A stretch of DNA of 64,000 bases from Naegleria gruberi (Eukaryota). Shown piece by piece: positions 4,501 to 35,565 of the stretch (positions are counted from its first letter, which is position 1; each line of letters starts with the position of its first letter). The notes beneath the pieces were generated by a model. That model saw nothing but the letters and a program-made list of their open reading frames with translations. It was not told the DNA's origin and did not search any database. The stretch lies in the NCBI GenBank assembly GCA_000004985.1, contig GG738847.1. One strand, given 5' to 3'. The position numbers and the translations under genes are program-made.

Positions 4501-4992
4501 CAAATCTCCACTCTTCAAAATATCCATTATGTTTTGGAAAGGTTGTTGTTTGCATTTAGTTGCAAGATCTTTTGCTGATCTTTTCACTAATTTAATACCA
4601 TTATCCAAATAACTACAGAAAACAATCATCAATTCTAAAGCATTTTTGTAAATCTGAACATTTTGATATCCACTTGAGGTATCAGTCAAGTTATAAATTT
4701 CTGAAACAGTAGAAGGAGATTGAGAAATTACATCCATGGCAGATACGTAAACTAGGGCACTTCTCAATGCGGCTAAACCATAACCTTGGAGGTTACCTTT
4801 CAGATGTGTAACTTCTTTTGCTAAAATGGCAATACCATTCATAGAAATAAATTCTTCAGAAAAAGTGGTATCTTGCAATGTTTCCTTCAATTGAAACAAT
4901 ATTTTACCCTTTTCAACTCTATCATCCGAGTCAAGAATATTGATATAGTCCCTAGATTTTAATTCAGGTCTTAGTTTTAAATAAGCAGACAT
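1583..4992 (-). CDS. diaphanous-type formin (GBD/FH3 - coiled coil - FH1 - FH2), gene model with one 37-nt intron and a frame discontinuity inside FH1
   Basis: N-terminal ORF 3172..4992 begins MSAYLK and carries armadillo-like GBD/FH3, a coiled coil and an FH1 with tandem (P)PPGMGGVPPPP repeats. ORF 2793..3239 continues FH1 in another frame and ends KKKMKMFSWDKATTM, the start of FH2. A GTAAGT...CTAAC..AAG intron at 2760..2796 splices in frame onto ORF 1583..2737: ...KATT|IQNTIWTNVVEQELDADEFEEMF... with GNYLNGG, a typical FH2 motif. Exons are roughly 1583..2759 and 2797..4992, with a frame shift near 3172-3239. Confidence 0.8.
2880..3560. repeat. tandem DNA repeats encoding FH1 poly-proline units (about 48-nt period, ccaggaggcattgg...ggaggaggaacacc...)
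   Basis: Near-identical units are visible by eye. The reverse-strand Gly-rich antisense ORFs in the track (3161..3637, 2864..3052) are artefacts of this repeat. Confidence 0.8.
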
Positions 4993-13534: not shown

Positions 13535-13607
13535 TCCCCCTTAGCTCAGTCGGTAGAGCGTCAGACTGTTAATCTGCAGGTCGGTGGTTCGAGCCCACCA
13601 GGGGGAG
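13535..13607 (+). tRNA. tRNA-Asn (anticodon GUU)
   Basis: 7-bp acceptor stem TCCCCCT/AGGGGGA, D-arm GCTCAGTCGGTAGAGC, anticodon loop CTGTTAA, T-arm GGTGGTTCGAGCCCACC, discriminator G. A T-run (GTTTTTGT) follows downstream. Confidence 0.9.
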
Positions 13608-24162: not shown

Positions 24163-26994
24163 ATGCAAAAAGAACAAACGCATACCTTCCCTTTTGTTGA
24201 TATTCTGCAGCAGGCAACATTGGGAAATTCATCTACGACTACTCCTAATAATTCAAACAGTGTTGTACAATCTCAACCTCAACAACAACAGCCTACAGTT
24301 CTAACATCAAATCCTATTACTACTAACACAAATCTAAATTCTGATTCGGTTGATCTTGACGAAATATTTAAGTTTATCCAACAACCATCTACATCTTTTG
24401 ATATGAATATTATTAACCACCAATTTAATTCCCTCTCTGATAATAATAGTAACAACATGTATAATAATAACAATACCCGAAGACAATTTTCTGCTGACCA
24501 CCAACAACAACAACAGATAACGAATCAACACCACCATCATCATCACTATCCAAATAACTTCCACCAACAACAACCTCATACTACCAATAATATTGCTGAC
24601 TATGATACATTCCTTCCTGAATTTGATGTCAATGATCAACAAGTATTTGCCACCACTCCAAATAACAATATCCAACAACAACCACACATGAATATTAACG
24701 TAATGCCAATTGTTGATGACAATAACCTCCTCGAATTTATTAATAATGGCGGATATTTACAGGCTCCACAAGGTTACAGCTATATGCAAGCAACCACAAA
24801 TCCACAAACAAACTCCTATCCAAAGGGTTATGGTATTTTCAATCAGGGTGTTCCGTTTGTTAGTGAACAGAATAGTGCTCAACCACTTAAACCAGCTTCT
24901 AATCAATTTTCTGATACAGTGACAGTGTTGAATAGTTTACCAAATTTAAAGGGATATCCTCGTCCACATTCACCACTTTCTGGTTCTACATTATCACCTG
25001 GTTCTACAATTACACCAAGTCCATCTGCTCTCAATGGATTTACTTTCCAAGGTATTCAAATTCCAGATCTGATTAAATTAGTTGAAGGTTTTAATAAGCC
25101 AGTAACTGAAAAGCAAATTGGTGGTCGAGACAATACAAGACATCCATTGCCAAGACAAGTTATTGAATTGGATGTAACAAAACTCCCACAAGATAGTAAC
25201 CCAGCTGTAATTTCTGTTAGACCTTCAGTTATGGGTATTGACAAGTCAACCAGAAAGAATACAGCCCTAGCAGTTTTGGGAGAGAAGCCATTCGTTAAAG
25301 CTTCATCTCATCCAGTTGAGCGATGGGTTGCAATCTTTGATGATATTGTCATTCAATTTGCCTCACATAACAATGGACAAAAACTCAGAATCAAGTTTGA
25401 ATTACTTGATGCTGAAAAGCGAGTTGTCTGTAGTATTGAATCTTATGGATTTGAAACAATTACAAAGAGAGGTATTGAAAAGAAGAAGGAAAGAAGAAAG
25501 ACTAAGGATAAGAGAAAGAGAAATTCTGATACTGAAGAAGACGAAACAGATGAAGCAACCATTGAACATGTTTCTCCTGCCTTTGGTTTTACTTCTGGTG
25601 GTGCTTTGGTTAAGGTTATGGGTTCTGGTTTTGTTTCTACACCACTCTCCAAATGTGTTGTCAGATTTGGAGACAAGGATGCCAGAGAAATCCACACCAT
25701 TAAGAGAAATTACATTGTTTGCGAGACTCCTGAAAGTGAAAAGGCAGGCATCGTTGATGTTTCTGTCATGTTTGGAGAAAGCCTCATTGGTGGTGAAGCC
25801 AAGTTCCAATACATTGACCCAACCAATACCTATGATTTGCAACTCATGATTCAACACATGATTGGTAATCAAAATGCTTTAAATAACTTTAATGCAGATG
25901 CTTCTTCGTTCTCCAACAAGTGTTACGATCAAACCATGTTCTATTCTGGTAAGGTTACAGATGAATGTGGTTTCACTGTTTTGCACCATGCTAGCGCTCG
26001 TGGCTTGTTCGAACTCTCTCAATATTTGGTTACAGAATCTGTTGTTGACATTGATGCCAAAGATAATTATGGCAGGACTGCTTTACATTGGGCCAGTTTT
26101 GCCTCATCAGATCTTGTCTGTCTCTACCTGATTAATAATGGTGCTGACATTTCTGAAACTGATGAAGTTGGCGATAACTTGCTTCATATTGCTTGTAGAT
26201 ATGCTACTGTTGAACATGTTCAAAATGTTCTTGGTGTCTTGTTAAAGCATGACGACAAGTACAGAACTAATACCAACAATATTTATGAACTTTTAACCTC
26301 TAAGAACAATGAAGGTGAAACACCTCTAGATCTTGCTAAGAGCATGGAAATGGATGATTCTGTTATGCAACTCATTTCAGTCTTTGAATCAGCTGCTGAA
26401 TATTGTCAAGCTCGTCTCTCAGAATATAGAATTCATCAACTCAAGAATATCACTTTACGTTCTGGTGAATTCAACGGAAAGACCATTAGCTCTCTTGAAG
26501 GTGAAAATAATAACTTGTCATTCGATATTCAACTCAAGAAGGATAAGTTGGTTTTGTCAATTGACAATGGAGACGGTAACCAAATCAGAGTTTCTATTGA
26601 TTACAAACATATTGCTTTCCTAATCTTGATCAAGCCACAACTCAAAGCAGAAATCACATTAAATACATCACCATTAATTGAGTTTGGTGATGCTAATGGT
26701 AACTGGGCAAGAATTAACAACCACAGATACCTTTCCTCTTGTCTGAGTTTCCATTTAGAAGTTAAAGATTCTACTGATCTCGACAAGATTAACAAGTTCA
26801 TCTGTGATAATGACTTGTTGTATCCATTCCAAACTATGTGCTTCTGTTATAGACCAACAATTGAAGAATCCACAAACAAGCTCAAAACACTCCCATCTTC
26901 AAATACTACCCCAACAACCAATACTGTAAATAAGGTGACCATGATTTCACCACAAGTAGATTCAATCAATCAAAGACAAACAAACATTTTTTAA
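24163..26994 (+). CDS. IPT/TIG-domain plus ankyrin-repeat protein with polyQ/N/H tracts (Spt23/Mga2- or CAMTA-like transcription factor architecture)
   Basis: Long low-complexity N-terminus (Q, N, H runs), then a TIG domain (..HVSPAFGFTSGGALVKVMGSGF..CVVRFGDKDAREIHTIKRNYIVCETPESEKAGIVDVSVMF), then at least two ankyrin repeats (..GRTALHWAS.., ..GDNLLHIACRY.., ..EGETPLDLAKS). No CG-1 domain or transmembrane segment seen. Confidence 0.65.
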   Translation: MQKEQTHTFPFVDILQQATLGNSSTTTPNNSNSVVQSQPQQQQPTVLTSNPITTNTNLNSDSVDLDEIFKFIQQPSTSFDMNIINHQFNSLSDNNSNNMYNNNNTRRQFSADHQQQQQITNQHHHHHHYPNNFHQQQPHTTNNIADYDTFLPEFDVNDQQVFATTPNNNIQQQPHMNINVMPIVDDNNLLEFINNGGYLQAPQGYSYMQATTNPQTNSYPKGYGIFNQGVPFVSEQNSAQPLKPASNQFSDTVTVLNSLPNLKGYPRPHSPLSGSTLSPGSTITPSPSALNGFTFQGIQIPDLIKLVEGFNKPVTEKQIGGRDNTRHPLPRQVIELDVTKLPQDSNPAVISVRPSVMGIDKSTRKNTALAVLGEKPFVKASSHPVERWVAIFDDIVIQFASHNNGQKLRIKFELLDAEKRVVCSIESYGFETITKRGIEKKKERRKTKDKRKRNSDTEEDETDEATIEHVSPAFGFTSGGALVKVMGSGFVSTPLSKCVVRFGDKDAREIHTIKRNYIVCETPESEKAGIVDVSVMFGESLIGGEAKFQYIDPTNTYDLQLMIQHMIGNQNALNNFNADASSFSNKCYDQTMFYSGKVTDECGFTVLHHASARGLFELSQYLVTESVVDIDAKDNYGRTALHWASFASSDLVCLYLINNGADISETDEVGDNLLHIACRYATVEHVQNVLGVLLKHDDKYRTNTNNIYELLTSKNNEGETPLDLAKSMEMDDSVMQLISVFESAAEYCQARLSEYRIHQLKNITLRSGEFNGKTISSLEGENNNLSFDIQLKKDKLVLSIDNGDGNQIRVSIDYKHIAFLILIKPQLKAEITLNTSPLIEFGDANGNWARINNHRYLSSCLSFHLEVKDSTDLDKINKFICDNDLLYPFQTMCFCYRPTIEESTNKLKTLPSSNTTPTTNTVNKVTMISPQVDSINQRQTNIF

Positions 26995-27157
26995 ATAAAT
27001 AATTTATTTATTATTTACAGCACCAAAACTTTGAGTTTAATAATGTTAAGGTTAGTAATTTAACCTGTAATTTTGAAAATATTGATATTAACATTAATAA
27101 ACTCAAAGTAATAGACTAATCGTAAATTATTGTTCCAAATTAAAACTTACAAAAAAA

Positions 27158-28264
27158 ATGACTGATGAAAATCCACCACTCATCATTGATAATGGTTCCT
27201 CTCTAATGAAAGCTGGTTTTTCTGGTGATGAAGCTCCACTTGCAGTCTTTCCCACAGTAACTTCACAACAAAAAGTAGCACCCATCCTCCTTTCAATGGG
27301 CTCTATCACAACATACGTTGGAGATAATGCATTGTGTAGGAGGGGTATTAATGTTTACAAATATCCAATTGATCGTGGATTGATTACTGATTGGTATCAT
27401 ATGGAAAAGATATGGCATCATACATTTTATAATGAGTTAAGAGTTGCTCCTGAAGAACATGAAGTATTATTGATGGGAATGCCATTAAATTCAAAGGAAA
27501 CGAAAGCGAAAATGGCACAAATCATGTTTGAAAGTTTTAAGGTGCAAGGTTTGTGTTTGGCAAATCAATGTGCCATGTCAATATTTGCAAGTGGTAGAAT
27601 GACAGGTGTAGTATTGGGATCAGGAGATGGCGTCACTAATTCAGTACCTATTTATGAAGGATATGCCCTATCACATGCCACCAATAGATTGGAATTAGGA
27701 GGCAAAGACCTGACAGATTATTTGAAGAAAATGTTAATGGAACGAGGATATAATTTCAACACCATGGGCGAAACTGCAATAGTCATGGATATGAAGGAAA
27801 AAACTGGTTATGTTGCCAGTAATTTTGTGGAAGAAACAGCGAAAGAAAGTTTATATGAATTACCAGATGGAAATGTAATTTCACTTGGAAGGGAAAGATT
27901 CAAAACTACTGAGATATTATTTCAACCAAATCTTATTGGAATGGAGGTTGCTGGAATTCATGAAAATATTTTCACTTCTATTAGAAAGTCAGATTTGGAT
28001 ATTAGAAAGGAATTGTATTCGAATATTGTTCTTTCAGGAGGATCGACATTGTTTAATGGAATTGTTGAACGATTGAATAATGAGTTGAGAGAAATATCTC
28101 CCTCCACAATGAAAATTCGAATAACAGCACCACCAGAAAGAAAGTACAGTACATGGATTGGTGGCAGTATTTTCTCCCAATTGCCAACTTTCCAATCAAC
28201 TTGCATAACAGCACAGGAATATGCAGATGTTGGTAGTGCAATTGTTCATAGGAAATGTTTCTAG
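27158..28264 (+). CDS. divergent actin-like protein (about 50% identical to conventional actin by eye)
   Basis: Full-length actin fold: IIDNGSS..KAGFSGDEAP, DSGDGVTNSVPIYEGY, LSGGSTLF, KIRITAPPERKYSTWIGGSI, and the canonical C-terminus IVHRKCF. aaaaaaaATG start. Confidence 0.85.
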   Translation: MTDENPPLIIDNGSSLMKAGFSGDEAPLAVFPTVTSQQKVAPILLSMGSITTYVGDNALCRRGINVYKYPIDRGLITDWYHMEKIWHHTFYNELRVAPEEHEVLLMGMPLNSKETKAKMAQIMFESFKVQGLCLANQCAMSIFASGRMTGVVLGSGDGVTNSVPIYEGYALSHATNRLELGGKDLTDYLKKMLMERGYNFNTMGETAIVMDMKEKTGYVASNFVEETAKESLYELPDGNVISLGRERFKTTEILFQPNLIGMEVAGIHENIFTSIRKSDLDIRKELYSNIVLSGGSTLFNGIVERLNNELREISPSTMKIRITAPPERKYSTWIGGSIFSQLPTFQSTCITAQEYADVGSAIVHRKCF

Positions 28265-28353
28265 TAAACCATAAAGTCAAGGGAGGATTTCACGTATTAA
28301 GGAACGGTTATATCACGATGAAGGTTGAAAAACCTTAATTTACATTAAGTAAT

Positions 28354-28471
28354 GGCTACGGCCATATCACGATGAATGCACCTCATCCCGTCCGATTTGA
28401 GAAGTTAAGCATCGTCGAGCCACATCAGTACTGAGGTTGGAGACAACTTGGGAACCTGTGGTGCTGTAGTC
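28354..28471 (+). rRNA. 5S ribosomal RNA (copy 1) with a downstream T6 terminator
   Basis: GGCTACGGCCATATCACG...CATCCCGTCCGATTTGAGAAGTTAAGC...GTACTGAGG...GGGAACCTGTGGTGCTGTAGTC followed by TTTTTT. The 3' end can pair with the 5' end (helix I). Upstream at 28290-28350 is a degenerate partial copy of the 5S 5' end (cggttatatcacgatgaa). Confidence 0.9.
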
Positions 28472-28854
28472 TTTTTTGAATCTGTGAATACTGTAACAAT
28501 ATTTGAAGACTCAAACTCGAAATTTGAAGGTTTATTGATCAACCACAAGTTTCTATTTCTAAATAGATAAAATTCAAAGGTGATATATAGATGGTCACGT
28601 AGCAAGCTTTTCTAAACAACAAACTTACTGAACCAACAATCAATAGATTCGTTGCCTTCACTGTTCATACAGTCAAAGACTGTAGCGGGATAGTCGCCAT
28701 ATTCCTGGCAGGCTTCCCGTCTTAATTGTTTTACAAATGAAATAACAAACTTAATTTTATGGAGACTCACACTTTATTCTAATGTTAAATAATAATTAAA
28801 AGCAAAATTGTTTCAAAAATTTAGCCTTTTTAAAGAAATTGATTTCTGTTTCAA

Positions 28855-29259
28855 TTATTTACGCTTGTAAATATCAACTTTCTTATTCTTCTTGCCACCT
28901 CTTCTATTCTTTCTATTCTTTCTATTCTTCTTTCTGTAAGTGTCAATTCTTCTCTTCTTATTAAATCTTCTCTTCTTTCCATAAACATCAATCTTCTTTC
29001 TGATAATTCTCTTCTTTCCATATCTCTTCCATCCTCTTCTCTTTCTTCCATAGGTGTCAATGTACTTGTTGAGCTTTCTATTGTTCTTTCTCTTCTTGAG
29101 TCTGTATTTCTTGAGATTTCTCTTCTTGTTATTCTTTCTAATGTATAAGGAAAGTGTTGAGGCAGCAGTTGATTCTTCTGCAGAAACTCCAGAAGTGAAC
29201 GAAAGTGCAAGAATTGCCAAAGTCAAGGCAATCAATAAGATTGAAACGAATCTTTTCAT
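28855..29259 (-). CDS. small secreted, extremely basic repeat protein (134 aa)
   Basis: aaaaaATG start, then signal peptide MKRFVSILLIALTLAILALSFTSGVSA. The mature region is about 50% Lys/Arg with periodic (I/V)D(T/V/I)Y(G/R)KK(R/N)R units. The longer track ORF upstream of this ATG does not look coding. Confidence 0.6.
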   Translation of the reverse strand: MKRFVSILLIALTLAILALSFTSGVSAEESTAASTLSLYIRKNNKKRNLKKYRLKKRKNNRKLNKYIDTYGRKRRGWKRYGKKRIIRKKIDVYGKKRRFNKKRRIDTYRKKNRKNRKNRRGGKKNKKVDIYKRK

Positions 29260-30023
29260 TTTTTGTTTTTTTGATTGTGTTTGAGAAGTGAAACATGTTT
29301 CAGTATTTAAATGTTTGAAAAGAATAGTTTGATTAGTATATTGATTTTTATGGTATGATTGAAGATGAATGATTTTCCATAAAGAGAGTAGCCACAGATT
29401 TTGGACATTGTACATTTGGTCTTTGTTAATCGGTGCGGATAATTGAACAAGAACAGAATGAAAGAACTTCAATGGTTGGATTGTGCACAAAGATGTGGAA
29501 TATCTTGGAATGAAAAAAATTCCAATGTTTAAAGAACGAAAGGACTGTAAAGAAGTACTACAGTTGGTTACAAAAAAAGTCCATATTGAGTTTACAATGA
29601 CTCTATTCAACGATTATTAAAGGCACAAGACAAGTTTCAGATTGTTACAATCAAAGAAACTATAAAGAGTTGAATTTCTGGTTAAGGTATGTTGAAAAAT
29701 AGAGACAATATTGAAACTGAATTAATCTGATATACATCGTGCTTTTTATATTCTTGTTCTTAAAAGTGCTAGTAGTTTCAAGTTGTCAAATGAAGAGTGG
29801 GAATCCTCTCTTTAACTTTCGTACAGTTTGAAAATGAGATAAACAAGAGGTGCTTACCACTTGAGAACAAGCATTGTTATAAATGTTTGTTGTTGATTTC
29901 GGTTGGTTTATGAGGATGAAAAGGAAATATCAACTATTCTGAAAGAGAAAATTCACAACTTTTATACTAATTTACATTTATTAATCATCACAAGCACGAA
30001 CGATATTAATCAAAATAGAATTT

Positions 30024-30203
30024 TCATTTGGTTTTTACATCTCCTCTCTTTACAGCAGCCGATCTTTTATCAACATTTCCATTTTTGGTGAGAAGAACAT
30101 CACCACTTTTAACAGCAGCTGATCTTTTGTCAACGGAACCACTAGATGTGAATCTGACTTCGTTGTTTTTTGCTGCAGAGCTTCTCTTGTCGACGTTACT
30201 CAT
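30024..30203 (-). CDS. possible small repeat peptide (59 aa; three or four VDKRSAAVK.GDV repeats)
   Basis: ATG in an aaaaaaaaaATG context. The peptide and the DNA are internally repetitive. It could instead be a non-coding repeat. Confidence 0.3.
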   Translation of the reverse strand: MSNVDKRSSAAKNNEVRFTSSGSVDKRSAAVKSGDVLLTKNGNVDKRSAAVKRGDVKTK

Positions 30204-30486
30204 TTTTTTTTGGAGAATTGTTGAAACTGTCAAATTTCAAGCCTGTCAAATTCTATTAATATTTTTGCAAAATTGTAACGTCTTCGGAATCTTGTTTGTA
30301 AGCTAGTGTTTAATTCCGAAATTCCACAGGTTTTGCATTAATATTTCTCTTTCGGAATGTTTGAAATATTTGAATTCCTTTCTAATAGAAAAAGAAATGA
30401 GAAAATAATTATTTGAAAGTTGTAAACAAAATCTTATCCAAATAATCTATTTCATGAATATATACATAAACATAAGATTACAATTT

Positions 30487-31599
30487 CTAGAAATATCTTC
30501 CCTGAACAATTCGAGGTCCAGTTTCTTCATATTCCTCCTTTGTTATCCAATGTTGTTGAAACATTCCAAGTGTTGAAAGTATTGATCCTCCAATCCAAAC
30601 TGAATATTTTCTCTCAGGTGGAGTAATGATATTGACATGAAATGTTGAGGGAGCTAGCTCTACAATTTCCTTTTTCAATCTCCTTTCCAATCCTTTCAAC
30701 ATGGTATTTCCACCAGAAAGAACAATACTCCCATACAAATTCCTTCTCATTTCGACATCACATTTAACGACAGAGTGAACGGCCTTCTCATGAATTCCTA
30801 GAGAATCCTTTCCAATTAAATTTGTTTGAAAAAGTGCTTCTGGACAAGTGAATAATTCCTTTCCAATATTAATTACATTCCCATCGGGTAGTTCATAATT
30901 CTGTTCCACCACTTTTTCATTTTCATAATCATATGCCACATGGCAGAGTTTCTCCTTAATATCTCTAACAATTTCCTTTTTAGTAAAGGGTGAATATTCC
31001 AAATCTTTCAACAAGGTCATTAAATATTGAGTCAAATCGCTACCAGCCAAATCCATATACGAAAGTGCTGTATTAGGATACCCTTCATAAACAGGAACTG
31101 TAAGTGTCATGCCATCTCCTGAATCCACCACAAGACCAGTTGTCCTCCCAGATGCATACAGAGCCAGCACTGAATGATTAGCAACATACATGGCTGGAAC
31201 TCCAAAGGTTTCGAACATGATTCGTGTCATCTTTTCTCGATTTGCTTTCGGATTCAATGGTGATTCAGTCAACATGATGGGATGATGCTCCGGAGCAATA
31301 CTCAATTCATTGTAAAATATGAAATGCCACAATTTTTCCATATCTTCCCAATTCGAAACTAAACCACGTTCAATAGGATTTGATAAATCCAACAGTCCTC
31401 TCTTTGATTGAGCTTCATCACCAACAAATACACTCCGTTGACCTAAGAGAGAAGAAAGTTTGGAATTTTGTTTTGGTTTTCCAATAATTGATGGCAAAAC
31501 ACATCTCGGAGCATCGTCACCTCCAAAACCAGCTTTTGATACTCCAGAACCGATATCAATGATCACTGGTTGAGGTTCTTCATCATTATGATGTGACAT
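30487..31599 (-). CDS. divergent actin-like protein (closer to actin than the 27158 paralog)
   Basis: Full actin fold: [75 protein letters not shown]. The C-terminus IVQGRYF deviates from canonical HRKCF. Confidence 0.85.
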
Positions 31600-31711
31600 T
31601 TATATGTTGGTATTTTTTAATTTTGAAAATTTGTTTGGTCCAAAATTACCTATGTTCGCTTTTCATCATCTGTATCAAAGATCCTTAATTTAAATAAAAT
31701 AATATAAAATT

Positions 31712-31784
31712 TGCCGACACCAGGGATCGAACCAGGGACCTTAAGATCTTCAGTCTTACGCTCTCCCAACTGAGCTATGTCGGC
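31712..31784 (-). tRNA. tRNA-Phe (anticodon GAA)
   Basis: The reverse complement reads GCCGACATAGCTCAGTTGGGAGAGCGTAAGACTGAAGATCTTAAGGTCCCTGGTTCGATCCCTGGTGTCGGCA, nearly identical to eukaryotic tRNA-Phe. A T-run follows the 3' end. Track ORF 31650..31835 overlapping it is spurious. Confidence 0.95.
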
Positions 31785-31877
31785 TTCTTGATCAACATAA
31801 ATTAATCTTCTCATCAGAACAACACGTGTAATCAATTTTTGTTTTTTATTGGGATTTAATATTACAGATTAGGTTTA

Positions 31878-32642
31878 TTATTTTTGATTTTTTACATAAT
31901 CATTCAATGAAAGTGGTTTAACATTGAAGAGGTCGTTATCAGTTTTTGGTGGATGTGCAACTCCTGAAATTGCAATCCATTGCAATTGTTGATATATAAT
32001 TGGACCAATTTGTTCTGGTTTCAATCCTTGTTGAATTTCTTTCTGGATGTGATTCTTCAAATCTTGGGCGGATCCCAACTTTTCAAATTCGAGTTGAGTT
32101 TGAGGGAAACTCAAGTGAGCTAATTCTTCTAAGGTCTTTTCATCACCAGCAACGTTTATTGATTTGTTCTTTAATTGTGGATTCAAAGATGCTTCGACAA
32201 CATACTTGGCAATATCTGAAGTGTCAGTCAATTGGATTCTGACATTCAAATCTCCATAGTATTTAACAGTGTCATTCTCCTTTTGGAATAAGAAACTTGG
32301 AAAGAAAGCATAACTATAGAATAATCCATTGTGAATCAATAGATAGTCAACTTGGTTTTGAGATTGCAAATCACTAATCAATTTCTTCTTTGGATCGATG
32401 AGGAAACTATCACCTAATTGCAAATAATCTTGGAAATTGAAACCGTAACTTGAAGGAACAAACTTTTTAACACCACTCAACTTGGCAGCATTCAATAATT
32501 TCAGTTGACCATCATAAACAATTGACTGATCTCCAGAAAGTGCGCTTACAATGACTTCAATTCCTTTGAATAATTGAGCCAAATCTTCAACACTTGAAGT
32601 TACAACATCTCCCTCAATAATGTGAGCATTAGAAATATTCAT
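31878..32642 (-). CDS. NmrA-like/atypical SDR-family protein (isoflavone-reductase-like); N-terminal Rossmann segment not found
   Basis: Resembles the NmrA/PCBER family from about residue 50 onward (..GIEVIVSAL..DGQLKLLNAAKLSGVKKFVPSSYGF..). The expected GxxGxxG N-terminal exon was not convincingly located in 32643-33000. Confidence 0.5.
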   Translation of the reverse strand: MNISNAHIIEGDVVTSSVEDLAQLFKGIEVIVSALSGDQSIVYDGQLKLLNAAKLSGVKKFVPSSYGFNFQDYLQLGDSFLIDPKKKLISDLQSQNQVDYLLIHNGLFYSYAFFPSFLFQKENDTVKYYGDLNVRIQLTDTSDIAKYVVEASLNPQLKNKSINVAGDEKTLEELAHLSFPQTQLEFEKLGSAQDLKNHIQKEIQQGLKPEQIGPIIYQQLQWIAISGVAHPPKTDNDLFNVKPLSLNDYVKNQK

Positions 32643-33086
32643 TTACTGGCCATTTAAATTAAAATAGAGAGATAGTACGCAGTGAGTGAGGAAAAATTTG
32701 TACGCCCTAAGACACACCATCGGGATTGACAAAGAGTGCATGGACATACATTGTTATTCCAAGCTTGAGGAGCGCAAACATTCCATAATGGAATTTTTCA
32801 AACTTCCAAACAGTGGTTCACATTTTCAATGTTTCTCTTTTTGTTGAAGAGGAAAATTACTCTCCGTCCTCCTACTAATACTAATACAGCAACCTTCTTT
32901 AATTCTCTTCTTTCTCTAACTGCCATTGAATACAAAGTGTTGAGGGAGTAGATGCTTGTTCTTCAGTGGTGGCACTAGCTCTTGATGTGAAAGGGTTAGA
33001 CATTTTCTAGTATTACATAATACTTGTTTGGCCGTATATTGAAAACTCTTAATTTACTAGAAATTGGAAGTATTAAGGAAGTGAAT

Positions 33087-33204
33087 GGCTACGGCCATAT
33101 CACGATTCATGCACCTCATCCCGTCCGATTTGAGAAGTTAAGCATCGTCGAGCCACATCAGTACTGAGGTTGGAGACAACTTGGGAACCTGTGGTGCTGT
33201 AGTC
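33087..33204 (+). rRNA. 5S ribosomal RNA (copy 2) with a downstream T5 terminator
   Basis: Differs from copy 1 only at about 2 positions (gattcat versus gatgaat). Shares the upstream motif gtattaaggaag with the copy-1 locus. Confidence 0.9.
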
Positions 33205-33265
33205 TTTTTACAAAATTTGAAAAACAAGGTAAATTAATTTGGTAGTTTTGTATCTTATGTTTATT

Positions 33266-34510
33266 TTAAACTGAAAATCTCTTACTTTTAATCATAAAAA
33301 CCAATAATTGATACAATAGGAAATCGGAGAGTTCTTTTCTTGAAGGAACTTGATCAATAAAGGCAAGATTATTTTCACAATAATTTACAATGGGAAGTAA
33401 GCTAACATCCATCTTTTCAACTGATTTGATAGGTTTGGAATAATTGCCAAACAAGACATCTGTTTCTCTTTGATCAATTTCTTCGAATACATGACCATCA
33501 AAAACAAAACTCTTGAAATCTTTCAATGTTCTTTCCTTATTTAGGAAAGAGGAAGAATTATCGAGAGCTGTTGCTACCAAAACAGTTGGGACGCCTTTCT
33601 TCCATGAGTATTCATTCAACTCTGAGAATAAGTTTCGTGCAGGAGGTGAGGTAGTTATCTTGTCATGACTAGCACAATACAGAATAATGTTTGGTTTGGA
33701 AATTGGATTAGGATTTGAAATAAATACTTCATTGTTGTCCATACCACTTCTGACTTTTCCTTTAAAGATTCTTCCGAGAATTTTCTTTGCCGGTTCAATA
33801 TCTGATTTCAAAGGTTCTCTCAATTGATTCCAAAATCCAGGACAATCAATAATCTCAATTTCTACGTGCTTTCCATCAATTTCCTTTGAAAGCTTCAAAT
33901 TGAAAATTTGTGTAGTGACAGTTTGTTCAGATTTGTAACATTTAATCATTTCTCTCTTTCCTTCTGTCAAGACGAAACCCAAATTTTGTTCAAGTAAATC
34001 AACAATTGCTTTGAGGAGAGTTGACTTTCCTTCACCACAACCTCCACAAGTTAAAAATTTGAAAGTTTCTTCAACCTTTAGTAAATTTAGGAATGATTGC
34101 TGAAGGGTTTTAATTCTGGACGAAAGTGGAATATTCTTTTCGATTTCTAAGGAGTAAAGCTTGGTTTTGAATTCAACTCCTTGTTGATCCTTGATGGTCG
34201 CATAAATTTCTTCCTTAAATTTTGACTTGTCGTTGGAAGAAAGGAAGAGAATATTCGAATTGAAAGCTTCCAATATTTTCGTATTATTCTTGGTGAATAG
34301 TGCAACATGATAAGGAACCTGACCCAAGTTTCCTGAGAGATGAAACTCAACCATTGCAAGGGAATCATAAACTTTTGAAATGGATACGGACCATTCAGGT
34401 TTACGTTTGGTTTCTTCTTGTTTAGTTTGATTATCTGTTTGATAGGTTTTGTACATGTAACCAGCTGCAATAGATGCAACACTGAAAAGAGCAGGAAGAA
34501 GGTAATTCAT
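33266..34510 (-). CDS. P-loop GTPase of the paraseptin type (AIG1/GIMAP/IRG/septin-like) with an N-terminal membrane anchor
   Basis: G1 TCGGCGEGKSTLLKAI, G3 IDCPGFW (compare septin DTPGFG and IRG DLPGIG), G4-like TALD. Hydrophobic N-terminus MNYLLPALFSVASIAAGYMY. Confidence 0.55.
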   Translation of the reverse strand: MNYLLPALFSVASIAAGYMYKTYQTDNQTKQEETKRKPEWSVSISKVYDSLAMVEFHLSGNLGQVPYHVALFTKNNTKILEAFNSNILFLSSNDKSKFKEEIYATIKDQQGVEFKTKLYSLEIEKNIPLSSRIKTLQQSFLNLLKVEETFKFLTCGGCGEGKSTLLKAIVDLLEQNLGFVLTEGKREMIKCYKSEQTVTTQIFNLKLSKEIDGKHVEIEIIDCPGFWNQLREPLKSDIEPAKKILGRIFKGKVRSGMDNNEVFISNPNPISKPNIILYCASHDKITTSPPARNLFSELNEYSWKKGVPTVLVATALDNSSSFLNKERTLKDFKSFVFDGHVFEEIDQRETDVLFGNYSKPIKSVEKMDVSLLPIVNYCENNLAFIDQVPSRKELSDFLLYQLLVFMIKSKRFSV

Positions 34511-34749
34511 TTAGTTTTTTGTATTAGAGAAATTGATCAGTCCAACAACTTCGAATGATTTATTCGAAACGTGTGTAAATTTTTGATTCTCTTTGATCCA
34601 ACCAATAGAAATCGTCCTGCAACACTTTACAATGGAATTCCAAAGTCAGTTTTTGTAATTCTTGATCAAAAATGGTCTTTGATCAATAAATACCTTCATT
34701 TGTTTGCATCACGTTTTCCACAAACTATAGTTTAGTTTCTTTTAAAAAA

Positions 34750-35565
34750 ATGATCAAAACAATTCTTGCTACCATTGCAGCAATTTCAACTTCAATTGGT
34801 TTTGGAGTTTTGGCTACACAACCCACGAGACAAGATCCTTATGGGGAATCTGTTATTTCACAAAATTCGAATAATCCTTCGTCTATTGTTCAAACTAATC
34901 TAGATGCCGCTATCAAGTATGAAAATTTGCAGCGTGAAGTTGAAATTATCAATCAAAAAATTCAAGATTTAATGTCACAACTTTCCACTCAGGGAAAATT
35001 AATCGAAACTTTGAAAACTAAACTGGAAATGGTAGAATTGAAATGGGTAACTTCTATTGTGGAATTAACAAGGAAACAAGATGGAGTTATTTGGACTTGT
35101 TTGATTGCAGGAGGTGGATTATTAACAATTTTCCTTATTTACAAGTTTATTTTAAGGAAGAAGAAAGTTTTTTCAAAGTTATTCGAAACAAATTCATCTC
35201 CTCCTCAGAAAGTCCCAAATCCAAAACCTTCTACAATTCTGTACTATTACCTTGCAGAGAAGGAATTTTTTGATGTACATTTTCAAAAAATACTCTCCTC
35301 ACTCAATTCTCATTCGAATGTTAAATTTGAAAGAGTTTCCAATCAATCTCAAAGTCATTTCACAATTCTAAACTTTAGCAATAGACAGAGAATGGGTAAT
35401 AACGTTCCAGATTCCATCAATCAATACCTTTCCATTGGTGGGAATGTGAACAGCACTGAATGGGCTAATAATGAAGTGAGATTATTTAGTGATGAGAATG
35501 GAAATGTTGATTGGAATGAAGATGTCATTGAAACTCTTATTAAGCTGGGAAATAAATTAGATTAA
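34750..35565 (+). CDS. hypothetical type I membrane protein (signal peptide, coiled coil, one TM helix, Asn-rich tail)
   Basis: aaaaaaATG start, then MIKTILATIAAISTSIGFGVLA, a heptad region, TM helix VIWTCLIAGGGLLTIFLIYKFIL followed by RKKK. Confidence 0.55.
   Translation: MIKTILATIAAISTSIGFGVLATQPTRQDPYGESVISQNSNNPSSIVQTNLDAAIKYENLQREVEIINQKIQDLMSQLSTQGKLIETLKTKLEMVELKWVTSIVELTRKQDGVIWTCLIAGGGLLTIFLIYKFILRKKKVFSKLFETNSSPPQKVPNPKPSTILYYYLAEKEFFDVHFQKILSSLNSHSNVKFERVSNQSQSHFTILNFSNRQRMGNNVPDSINQYLSIGGNVNSTEWANNEVRLFSDENGNVDWNEDVIETLIKLGNKLD

Follow-up and report, generated by a model that had tools for sequence, protein, structure and literature searches.

A loose pair of 5S rRNA genes in Naegleria gruberi: dispersed organisation, a proximal upstream block and a 5′ relic

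Introduction

In Neurospora crassa, about 100 genes for 5S ribosomal RNA (rRNA) are reportedly dispersed over the genome within unrelated flanks, and a TATA box near −29 is found there in addition to internal elements. A short A/T-rich element, located about 25–30 nt upstream, is said to be required in this fungus along with the internal promoter. The 5S unit of Naegleria resembles these genes as well as the dispersed 5S genes of fission yeast. The present study deals with a stretch of 64,000 nt from Naegleria gruberi (contig GG738847.1 of assembly GCA_000004985.1; this whole 64-kb stretch is referred to as the window), in which two 5S rRNA genes, a partial duplicate of the 5S 5′ end and a tRNA-Phe gene lie among protein-coding genes.

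Dispersed 5S genes are also known from Yarrowia, which contains 108 of them together with eight relics carrying 5′ and/or 3′ deletions (PMC2566860). The type-1 promoter of the Xenopus 5S genes is located inside the gene, where box A (+50 to +60), an intermediate element (+67 to +72) and box C (+80 to +90) are bound by TFIIIA (PMC7279448). For N. gruberi itself, 279 putative 5S genes were identified by BLASTn (Feng et al., 2012, PLoS One 7:e36878; PMC3369914, Table S1). These were described as having an internal control region (ICR), a TATA box and T-run terminators and as being unlinked to the ribosomal DNA (rDNA), and TFIIIA was not detected in this species by BLASTp or PSI-BLAST (PMC3369914). 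The extrachromosomal rDNA circle of N. gruberi contains the 18S, 5.8S and 28S genes only (PMC5805870).

Results

Two 5S rRNA genes of a dispersed family

The window very probably harbors two chromosomal 5S genes of N. gruberi, each transcribed on its own, and one tRNA-Phe gene of the same organism. The 5S genes are members of a family of roughly 279 copies, which is scattered over intergenic DNA in a gene-dense genome. When the whole window was scanned with Rfam at the gathering threshold (38 bits for RF00001 and 29 bits for RF00005), exactly four matches were obtained, two for 5S rRNA and two for tRNA (Table 1). Both 5S matches extend over the full model and exceed the threshold by far. A first-pass annotation, which had been made from the sequence without database searches and had proposed a cluster of dispersed RNA polymerase III (Pol III) genes at this locus, described the two 5S genes as a near-identical pair on the same strand, 2 mismatches and 4.7 kb apart, each with a T-run terminator. 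This description holds in every part: 117 of 119 positions are identical, the distance from start to start is 4733 bp, and the terminators consist of six and five T, respectively. An oligo-T run of at least four T directly after the gene is common to all 8 Naegleria 5S copies considered in this study (T4–T7).

Copy 1 has GA at positions 21–22 and copy 2 has TC there; the two copies are otherwise identical. Among the 39 predicted base pairs of the 5S rRNA, the pair 21:57 is broken in copy 2 alone (G-C to U-C). Between N. gruberi and N. fowleri/N. lovaniensis, two compensatory changes are observed (68:107, CG to UA; 69:106, AU to GC), and the pair 2:117 changes from G-U in N. gruberi to G-C in the other two species. 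These pair-preserving substitutions support a constrained, functional 5S RNA. Regarding the ICR (box A, intermediate element and box C), the box A core AGTTAAGC at +50 to +57 matches and fits the consensus N(G/C)(C/T)(C/T)AANC as used in PMC3369914; box C is matched only partially.

A genome-wide census of 5S copies, which the first-pass annotation had suggested as a check, exists already (PMC3369914) and includes both genes of the window. Table S1 of that study has only two entries on scaffold_3, R33893 (540357–540473) and R33609 (545090–545206). Their spacing of 4733 bp is that of the two window copies, and the similarity values given for them, 0.75 for the entry at 540357 and a lower 0.733 for the one at 545090, are as expected of a 2-nt variant. 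The window thus most likely corresponds to scaffold_3:512004–576003, a match which rests on spacing, organism and variant order. As the spacing of the scaffold_3 entries is identical, both window genes are already catalogued, and the two loci, the copy number of their family and its dispersed organisation are published (PMC3369914).

All 279 rows of Table S1 were used for an analysis of the genomic distribution, with copies at a distance of ≤10 kb being regarded as linked. At least one copy is present on each of 117 scaffolds, and the family is composed of 200 singletons, 32 pairs and 5 triplets. Neighbor gaps of ≤10 kb occur 42 times, whereas 18.6 ± 3.9 would be expected if the copies were placed at random. 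No regularity is seen among the smallest gaps, which exceed 1.1 kb with the exception of one of 462 nt. The N. gruberi 5S family is dispersed and not tandem, loose pairs being moderately overrepresented. Since the census consists mostly of singletons with 32 pairs, the loose pair in the window is a typical member of the family and not part of a tandem array; for the N. gruberi genome it is ordinary. Table 1 of PMC3369914 marks N. gruberi with "tandem arrangement: yes"; the coordinates in Table S1 of the same study show no regular array.

The local arrangement agrees with the dispersed genes which had been proposed for the window. The window contains two 5S copies in 64 kb, 4.7 kb apart and with open reading frames (ORFs) and a tRNA gene in between, which is not the pattern of a tandem 5S array. 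Neither small-subunit nor large-subunit nor 5.8S rRNA was matched by Rfam in the 64 kb, so that an rDNA-linked or extrachromosomal 5S arrangement does not apply and the two genes lie among protein-coding genes rather than in an rDNA array. A dicistronic tRNA-5S unit of the Yarrowia type is likewise not present, as the tRNA-Phe gene lies on the opposite strand, is followed by a T4 run of its own and is separated from copy 2 by about 1.3 kb and from copy 1 by about 3.2 kb.

5S copies at other Naegleria loci

Six further upstream regions of Naegleria 5S genes were recovered from other sources. A 25-mer scan of JGI metagenomes yielded one full 5S copy (environmental contig L001), and the same 25-mer had no match in the genome-contig or viral-contig sets. 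When translations of the 5S gene were used as peptide queries for spurious ORF calls, one contig was obtained, on which the 5S is cut off at the contig end. In addition, loci were fetched via canonical actins; for N. fowleri approximately 170 kb of sequence was obtained in this way, for N. lovaniensis 63 kb and for Willaertia 21 kb. With nhmmer, N. fowleri yielded a single distinct 5S gene (L009, L012 being a duplicate of it) and N. lovaniensis four. Three of the latter lie within 3 kb of each other in L015, not all of them in the same orientation, and the fourth lies in L016; in the actin locus of Willaertia magna no 5S gene was found by nhmmer.

The N. fowleri locus L009 has only actin and 5S in common with the window. 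L009 and L015 share an orthologous site, an intergenic one located next to a 100-aa gene, actin and ARPC4. At this site a 5S gene is present in both N. fowleri (L009, 8504–8622, + strand) and N. lovaniensis (L015, 8280–8398, − strand), in opposite orientation, at different distances and with a spacer that cannot be aligned. This suggests turnover or inversion between the sister species. A 5S gene within 5 kb of an actin-family gene is seen in N. gruberi (27158–33205), N. fowleri L009 and N. lovaniensis L015 and L016. As the loci were fetched through actin and the sample is therefore biased, no association between actin and 5S can be claimed; the linkage of the 5S genes to actin-family genes is incidental, and the actins are neighbors which lie outside the Pol III units.

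A proximal upstream block in conserved position

For the analysis of the upstream regions an ungapped alignment anchored at +1 was made from seven copies, namely three of N. gruberi type (the two window copies and the environmental copy L001), one of N. fowleri and three of N. lovaniensis. In all seven, AAA at −26 to −24, T at −14 and AT at −2/−1 are invariant, and T at −28 as well as TGA at −5 to −3 are nearly so. The four most independent sequences share 7 invariant columns in the region −29 to −1, compared with 1.57 expected (reached in 5 of 20000 shuffles), and the same four-sequence test revealed no invariant column in −60 to −30. The elements which N. gruberi, N. fowleri, N. lovaniensis and the environmental copy have in common position are a WTNAAAA box at −29 to −23 and (T)GAAT at −5 to −1. 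Similarity between the 5S loci ends at about −30 to −35 on the upstream side and immediately past the T-run on the other. Two of the N. lovaniensis copies show this particularly clearly, being identical in −29 to −1, with no relationship either from −30 outward or past the T-run. The most likely identity of the box at −29 to −23 is that of a TATA-like upstream element for Pol III. Within the window, the upstream regions of copies 1 and 2 agree at 12 of 29 positions. The box of copy 2 reads TAGAAATT at −29 in the +1-anchored register, and the motif occurs once more, in displaced position, as TTGAAAACTCTTAATTTAC further upstream at 33039–33057.

The first-pass annotation had drawn attention to another upstream motif, which was said to be shared by both 5S genes and to be a possible promoter or insertion-site element. 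The motif, GTATTAAGGAA, is indeed present before both genes; its shared length is 11 nt and not 12, as at the twelfth position copy 1 has C and copy 2 has G. The window contains it at two places only, 28294 and 33070 (0.04 occurrences expected), both of them upstream of a 5S gene. The proposed general role is nevertheless contradicted by its position, which is −60 to −50 in copy 1, where it abuts the relic described below, and −17 to −7 in copy 2, a shift of 43 nt. Moreover, it was not found in the six other Naegleria 5S upstream regions recovered, and the element that is conserved sits at −29 to −23.

The 5′ relic upstream of copy 1

Copy 1 is preceded by a degenerate duplicate of the 5S 5′ end, as had been recognized in the first reading of the sequence. 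This duplicate, ACGGTTATATCACGATGAA, is located at 28304–28322 on the + strand, 50 nt upstream of copy 1, and agrees with 5S positions 5–23 at 17 of 19 positions, with 0.01 chance matches expected. No other 17/19 match to any 5S 19-mer exists in the 127,184 strand positions of the window. Together with the adjoining GTATTAAGGAA it forms a relic of 29 nt (Table 1), which ends exactly at the start of the upstream block of copy 1. From its sequence, the relic is best read as the −17 to +23 part of a copy-2-type 5S unit that would have lost about 11 nt (gtgaatggcta). As GTATTAAGGAA belongs to the proximal block of the copy-2 type and recurs before the relic, the relic appears to be a decayed unit of this type and not a promoter or insertion signal for copy 1. 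An origin by local partial duplication or from a truncated older copy, corresponding to the unequal recombination suggested in the first-pass annotation, is plausible. Further 5S fragments were found neither by an Rfam E-value scan of 27000–35000 nor by nhmmer --max and blastn-short on the whole window, which gave the relic only. A 15/17 match at 29280 was also considered as a 5S fragment and was rejected because it is within chance when all 5S 17-mers are counted.

tRNA genes and protein-coding neighbors

The tRNA-Phe gene, which the first-pass annotation had placed between the 5S genes without giving its strand, was confirmed there by Rfam and ARAGORN and lies on the minus strand. It is an independent Pol III type-2 gene, separate from the 5S units. 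The second tRNA match in the window is a tRNA-Asn gene. TTAATTTA was considered as a common Pol III element, as it occurs upstream of both 5S genes and of tRNA-Phe; it was rejected because its distances vary and because neither tRNA-Asn nor the other species have it, and the box conserved in position at −29 was preferred.

Of the two actin-like genes thought to be interleaved with the Pol III genes, both do belong to PF00022, but only the second lies between the 5S genes, the first being located outside the proposed cluster. The first matches NAEGRDRAFT_29917 of N. gruberi at 100% identity, by which the organism was identified; the two proteins are 48% identical to each other. Apart from tRNA-Phe and the second actin-family gene, the space between the 5S copies contains three ORFs, all on the minus strand. 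The ORF at 28855–29259 encodes a secreted-looking, extremely K/R-rich protein of 134 aa with internal repeats of about 66–69 nt and without a Pfam match, and the ORF at 30027–30203 (59 aa) contains three VDKRSAAVK-type repeats. The third, at 31878–32642, encodes an NmrA-like protein of 254 aa which lacks the N-terminal GxxGxxG Rossmann segment. A homolog with 97% nucleotide identity on an ENA metagenome contig (L003, 1–1075) is 296 aa long and has this segment; similarity between the two ends near position 32625 of the window, and again right after the stop codon. The NmrA-like ORF may represent a pseudogene or a truncated copy, or a 5′ exon of the gene may have escaped recognition. A search for an orthologous locus via this neighbor yielded only the close homolog on the 1-kb ENA contig, which has other flanks, and a 60% paralog. 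Upstream of the first actin-family gene, at 24163–26994 (+), a Q/N-rich protein of 943 aa is encoded, with an IPT/TIG domain followed by ankyrin repeats.

Two observations were made on the N. fowleri loci. In assembly GCA_008403515.1, an identical gene for a 375-aa actin is present in eight loci (L005–L012), where its two flanks are combined in a mosaic fashion. The left flank contains HSP70, peptidase M1 or abhydrolase, and the right flank NRPS-like, M16 peptidase or PARP. Two explanations come into question, namely recombination with the actin copies as its junctions, or contigs that are chimeric at this repeat. Furthermore, L011 contains three tRNA-Arg(TCT) genes (15614, 16944 and 18421) at distances of 1.3–1.5 kb, and the related locus L008 contains one (15616); the 60-nt upstream regions of the L011 genes are essentially identical and contain CTTATAAAAATAC.

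Table 1. Coordinates of 5S-related features, tRNA genes and actin-family genes in the window.
Feature	Position	Strand	Remarks
5S rRNA copy 1 (canonical N. gruberi sequence)	28354–28472	+	RF00001, 105.4 bits, full model 1–120
5S rRNA copy 2 (variant G21U, A22C)	33087–33205	+	RF00001, 100.3 bits, model positions 1–120
Proximal upstream region of copy 1 (−29 to −1), TTGAAAAACCTTAATTTACATTAAGTAAT	28325–28353	+	TTGAAAA box at −29 to −23
Proximal upstream region of copy 2 (−29 to −1), TAGAAATTGGAAGTATTAAGGAAGTGAAT	33058–33086	+	TAGAAAT box at −29 to −23; GTATTAAGGAA at −17 to −7
Box A core AGTTAAGC, 5S positions 50–57	28403–28410 (copy 1); same sequence at 33136–33143 (copy 2)	+	Seen in sequence
Box C-like GGTTGGAGACAAC, 5S positions 82–94	28435–28447	+	Partial fit to box C consensus
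T6 run, Pol III terminator of copy 1	28472–28477	+	Seen in sequence
T5 run, Pol III terminator of copy 2	33205–33209	+	Seen in sequence
5S relic, 29 nt	28294–28322	+	GTATTAAGGAA followed by CGGTTATATCACGATGAA (5S positions 6–23, 16/18)
tRNA-Phe (GAA)	31712–31784	−	RF00005, 67.9 bits; ARAGORN; TTAATTTA at −21 to −14; T4 run after 3′ end
tRNA-Asn (GTT)	13535–13607	+	Rfam, ARAGORN; A/T-rich CTAAATATTTCA at about −34 to −23; T5 terminator
First actin-family gene, NAEGRDRAFT_29917	27158–28264	+	100% identical protein; PF00022, E = 1.6e-114; stop 89 nt upstream of 5S copy 1
Second, divergent actin-family gene	30487–31599	−	PF00022, E = 1.6e-120; between the two 5S genes

Discussion

The 5S unit of N. 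gruberi can be described as a segment of about 155 bp, which would consist of the block from −29 to −1, the 119-nt gene with its putative ICR and the oligo-T terminator. In such a unit the internal elements are expected to recruit the factors for Pol III assembly, the A-rich box at about −26 would help to position TFIIIB/TBP, initiation would take place at the G of GGCUAC, and Pol III would terminate in the T-run. The relic would represent what decay has left of the 5′ end of another unit of the copy-2 type, generated by local partial duplication or truncation, and would probably have no function of its own.

Several points weigh against this picture of two active genes behind a conserved upstream element. 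In the eighth copy, N. lovaniensis L016, the same block is present with the A-rich box displaced by about 8 nt, and thus the spacing is not absolutely fixed. Only 8 upstream regions are available, 7 of them usable in register, and as the three N. lovaniensis copies in the alignment are closely related, conservation looks higher than it is. Factor binding, the start site and the activity of each copy are what we infer, with activity and start site being assumed. Furthermore, the classical ICR/TFIIIA route is not established for N. gruberi, as TFIIIA was not found by BLAST (PMC3369914). Finally, given its broken helix pair, copy 2 may be less active or a pseudogene.

This last point leads to the idea that copy 2, and perhaps other copies with the similarity value 0.733, is a decaying or weakly active pseudogene and that copy 1 alone contributes 5S rRNA. 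We regard this as rather doubtful, though it deserves consideration and would be compatible with the proposed role of copy 1. It would fit with the pair 21:57 being broken in copy 2 alone, with the change of the adjacent loop base, with an Rfam score 5 bits below that of copy 1 and with an upstream region that equals the one of copy 1 at only 12 of 29 positions. Copy 2 still scores 100 bits, however, and has kept the A-rich box at −26 to −24, TGAAT before +1, box A and the T5 run; as about 27 entries of the census share the value 0.733, it may also represent a tolerated variant class. A different question is whether the pair as such is the remnant of a 4.7-kb tandem segmental duplication of actin plus 5S, the shared motifs then being leftover homology. 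Both copies are on the same strand, actin-family genes are near both, and a 37-nt match of 70% exists at an offset of 4732. Yet an identity scan of the flanks at offsets 4728–4739 gave z ≤2.7 in every segment, compared with about 4 for the best random offsets, the second actin lies on the other strand and not on the side that such a duplication would require, and the same upstream block is found at unrelated loci and in other species, which makes a segmental duplication extremely improbable.

Two further explanations concern the way in which the copies spread. The first-pass annotation had considered retroposition, by which the dispersed copies and the relic would derive from 5S transcripts, as in 5S-derived short interspersed elements (SINEs) or processed pseudogenes. 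Many near-identical copies are dispersed in the genome and a 5′ fragment lies beside a full copy, as could be expected from such a process. However, there are no poly-A tails, the full copies are all complete at the 5′ end, and the flanks of all 8 copies exhibit no target-site duplications beyond chance 7–8-mers in AT-rich DNA. The shared block also covers about 29 nt upstream of +1, which is not expected in a Pol III transcript, and the relic includes the upstream, non-transcribed GTATTAAGGAA. Retroposition is therefore very unlikely. Around all 8 Naegleria 5S copies no relic was found other than the one before N. gruberi copy 1. If the copies spread as DNA, the roughly 155 bp of the 5S unit, from −29 to the T-run, could form a cassette, inserted as a whole by copying or movement, in one orientation or the other, at intergenic sites and now and then within another 5S unit; the relic could then be the remaining 5′ end of a unit struck by such an insertion. 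The two N. lovaniensis copies which are the same over −29 to −1 and unrelated outside the unit, the mixed orientation of the three copies in L015, the opposite 5S orientation at the orthologous site of N. fowleri and N. lovaniensis, the excess of close pairs in N. gruberi and the coincidence of the relic's end with the start of the next unit's upstream block all point in this direction. On the other hand, gene conversion together with selection on the promoter would account for these observations as well, sharp edges of homology included, the 3′ remainder of the supposed target 5S was not found downstream of copy 1, and terminal repeats, target-site duplications or associated enzyme genes were not seen in what is a very small sample. 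We consider such a cassette unlikely. An extended version, with cassettes of about 155 bp turning over fast between species, transcription relying mainly on the upstream box and not on TFIIIA, and the relic as the stump of a disrupted unit, appears quite improbable.

The wider significance of the reading as two independently transcribed members of the dispersed family is small. The rRNA genes of Naegleria are split between an extrachromosomal circle in thousands of copies and a few hundred 5S genes scattered over the chromosomes, an arrangement that raises the question of how dosage is coordinated. The first-pass annotation had regarded the linkage as informative for lineage, and the arrangement fits Naegleria, with the large rRNAs on the circle (PMC5805870) and the 5S genes scattered on the chromosomes (PMC3369914). 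The sites and orientations of the 5S genes differ between sister species, which suggests turnover. As the block from −29 to −1 is kept in position across three Naegleria species, it offers itself as a specific candidate for an upstream element of Pol III genes in heteroloboseans.

The previous description of the N. gruberi 5S genes (PMC3369914) includes neither the relic nor the positional conservation of the −29 box across species. What the present analysis adds is the conserved position of the upstream block and the differences in 5S sites and orientations between sister species. In having 5S genes outside the rDNA which are scattered over the genome, and a relic of such a gene, N. gruberi resembles Yarrowia; in the latter, in contrast, half of the 5S genes are fused to the 3′ side of tRNA genes and co-transcribed with them. 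With the type-1 promoter of Xenopus it has in common the box A core AGTTAAGC at +50 to +57, a box C-like sequence, GGTTGGAGAC, at +82 to +91 and the oligo-T terminator. It differs from Xenopus in that no TFIIIA is detected by BLAST (PMC3369914) and that a conserved upstream block is present, for which reasons the balance between internal and upstream control may be different in N. gruberi.

The closest match to the architecture found in N. gruberi is provided by the 5S genes of Neurospora crassa. Here the difference lies in the organisms, a fungus on one side and a heterolobosean on the other, and in the upstream element itself, which is a TATA box in Neurospora and a WTNAAAA box with a predicted function in Naegleria.

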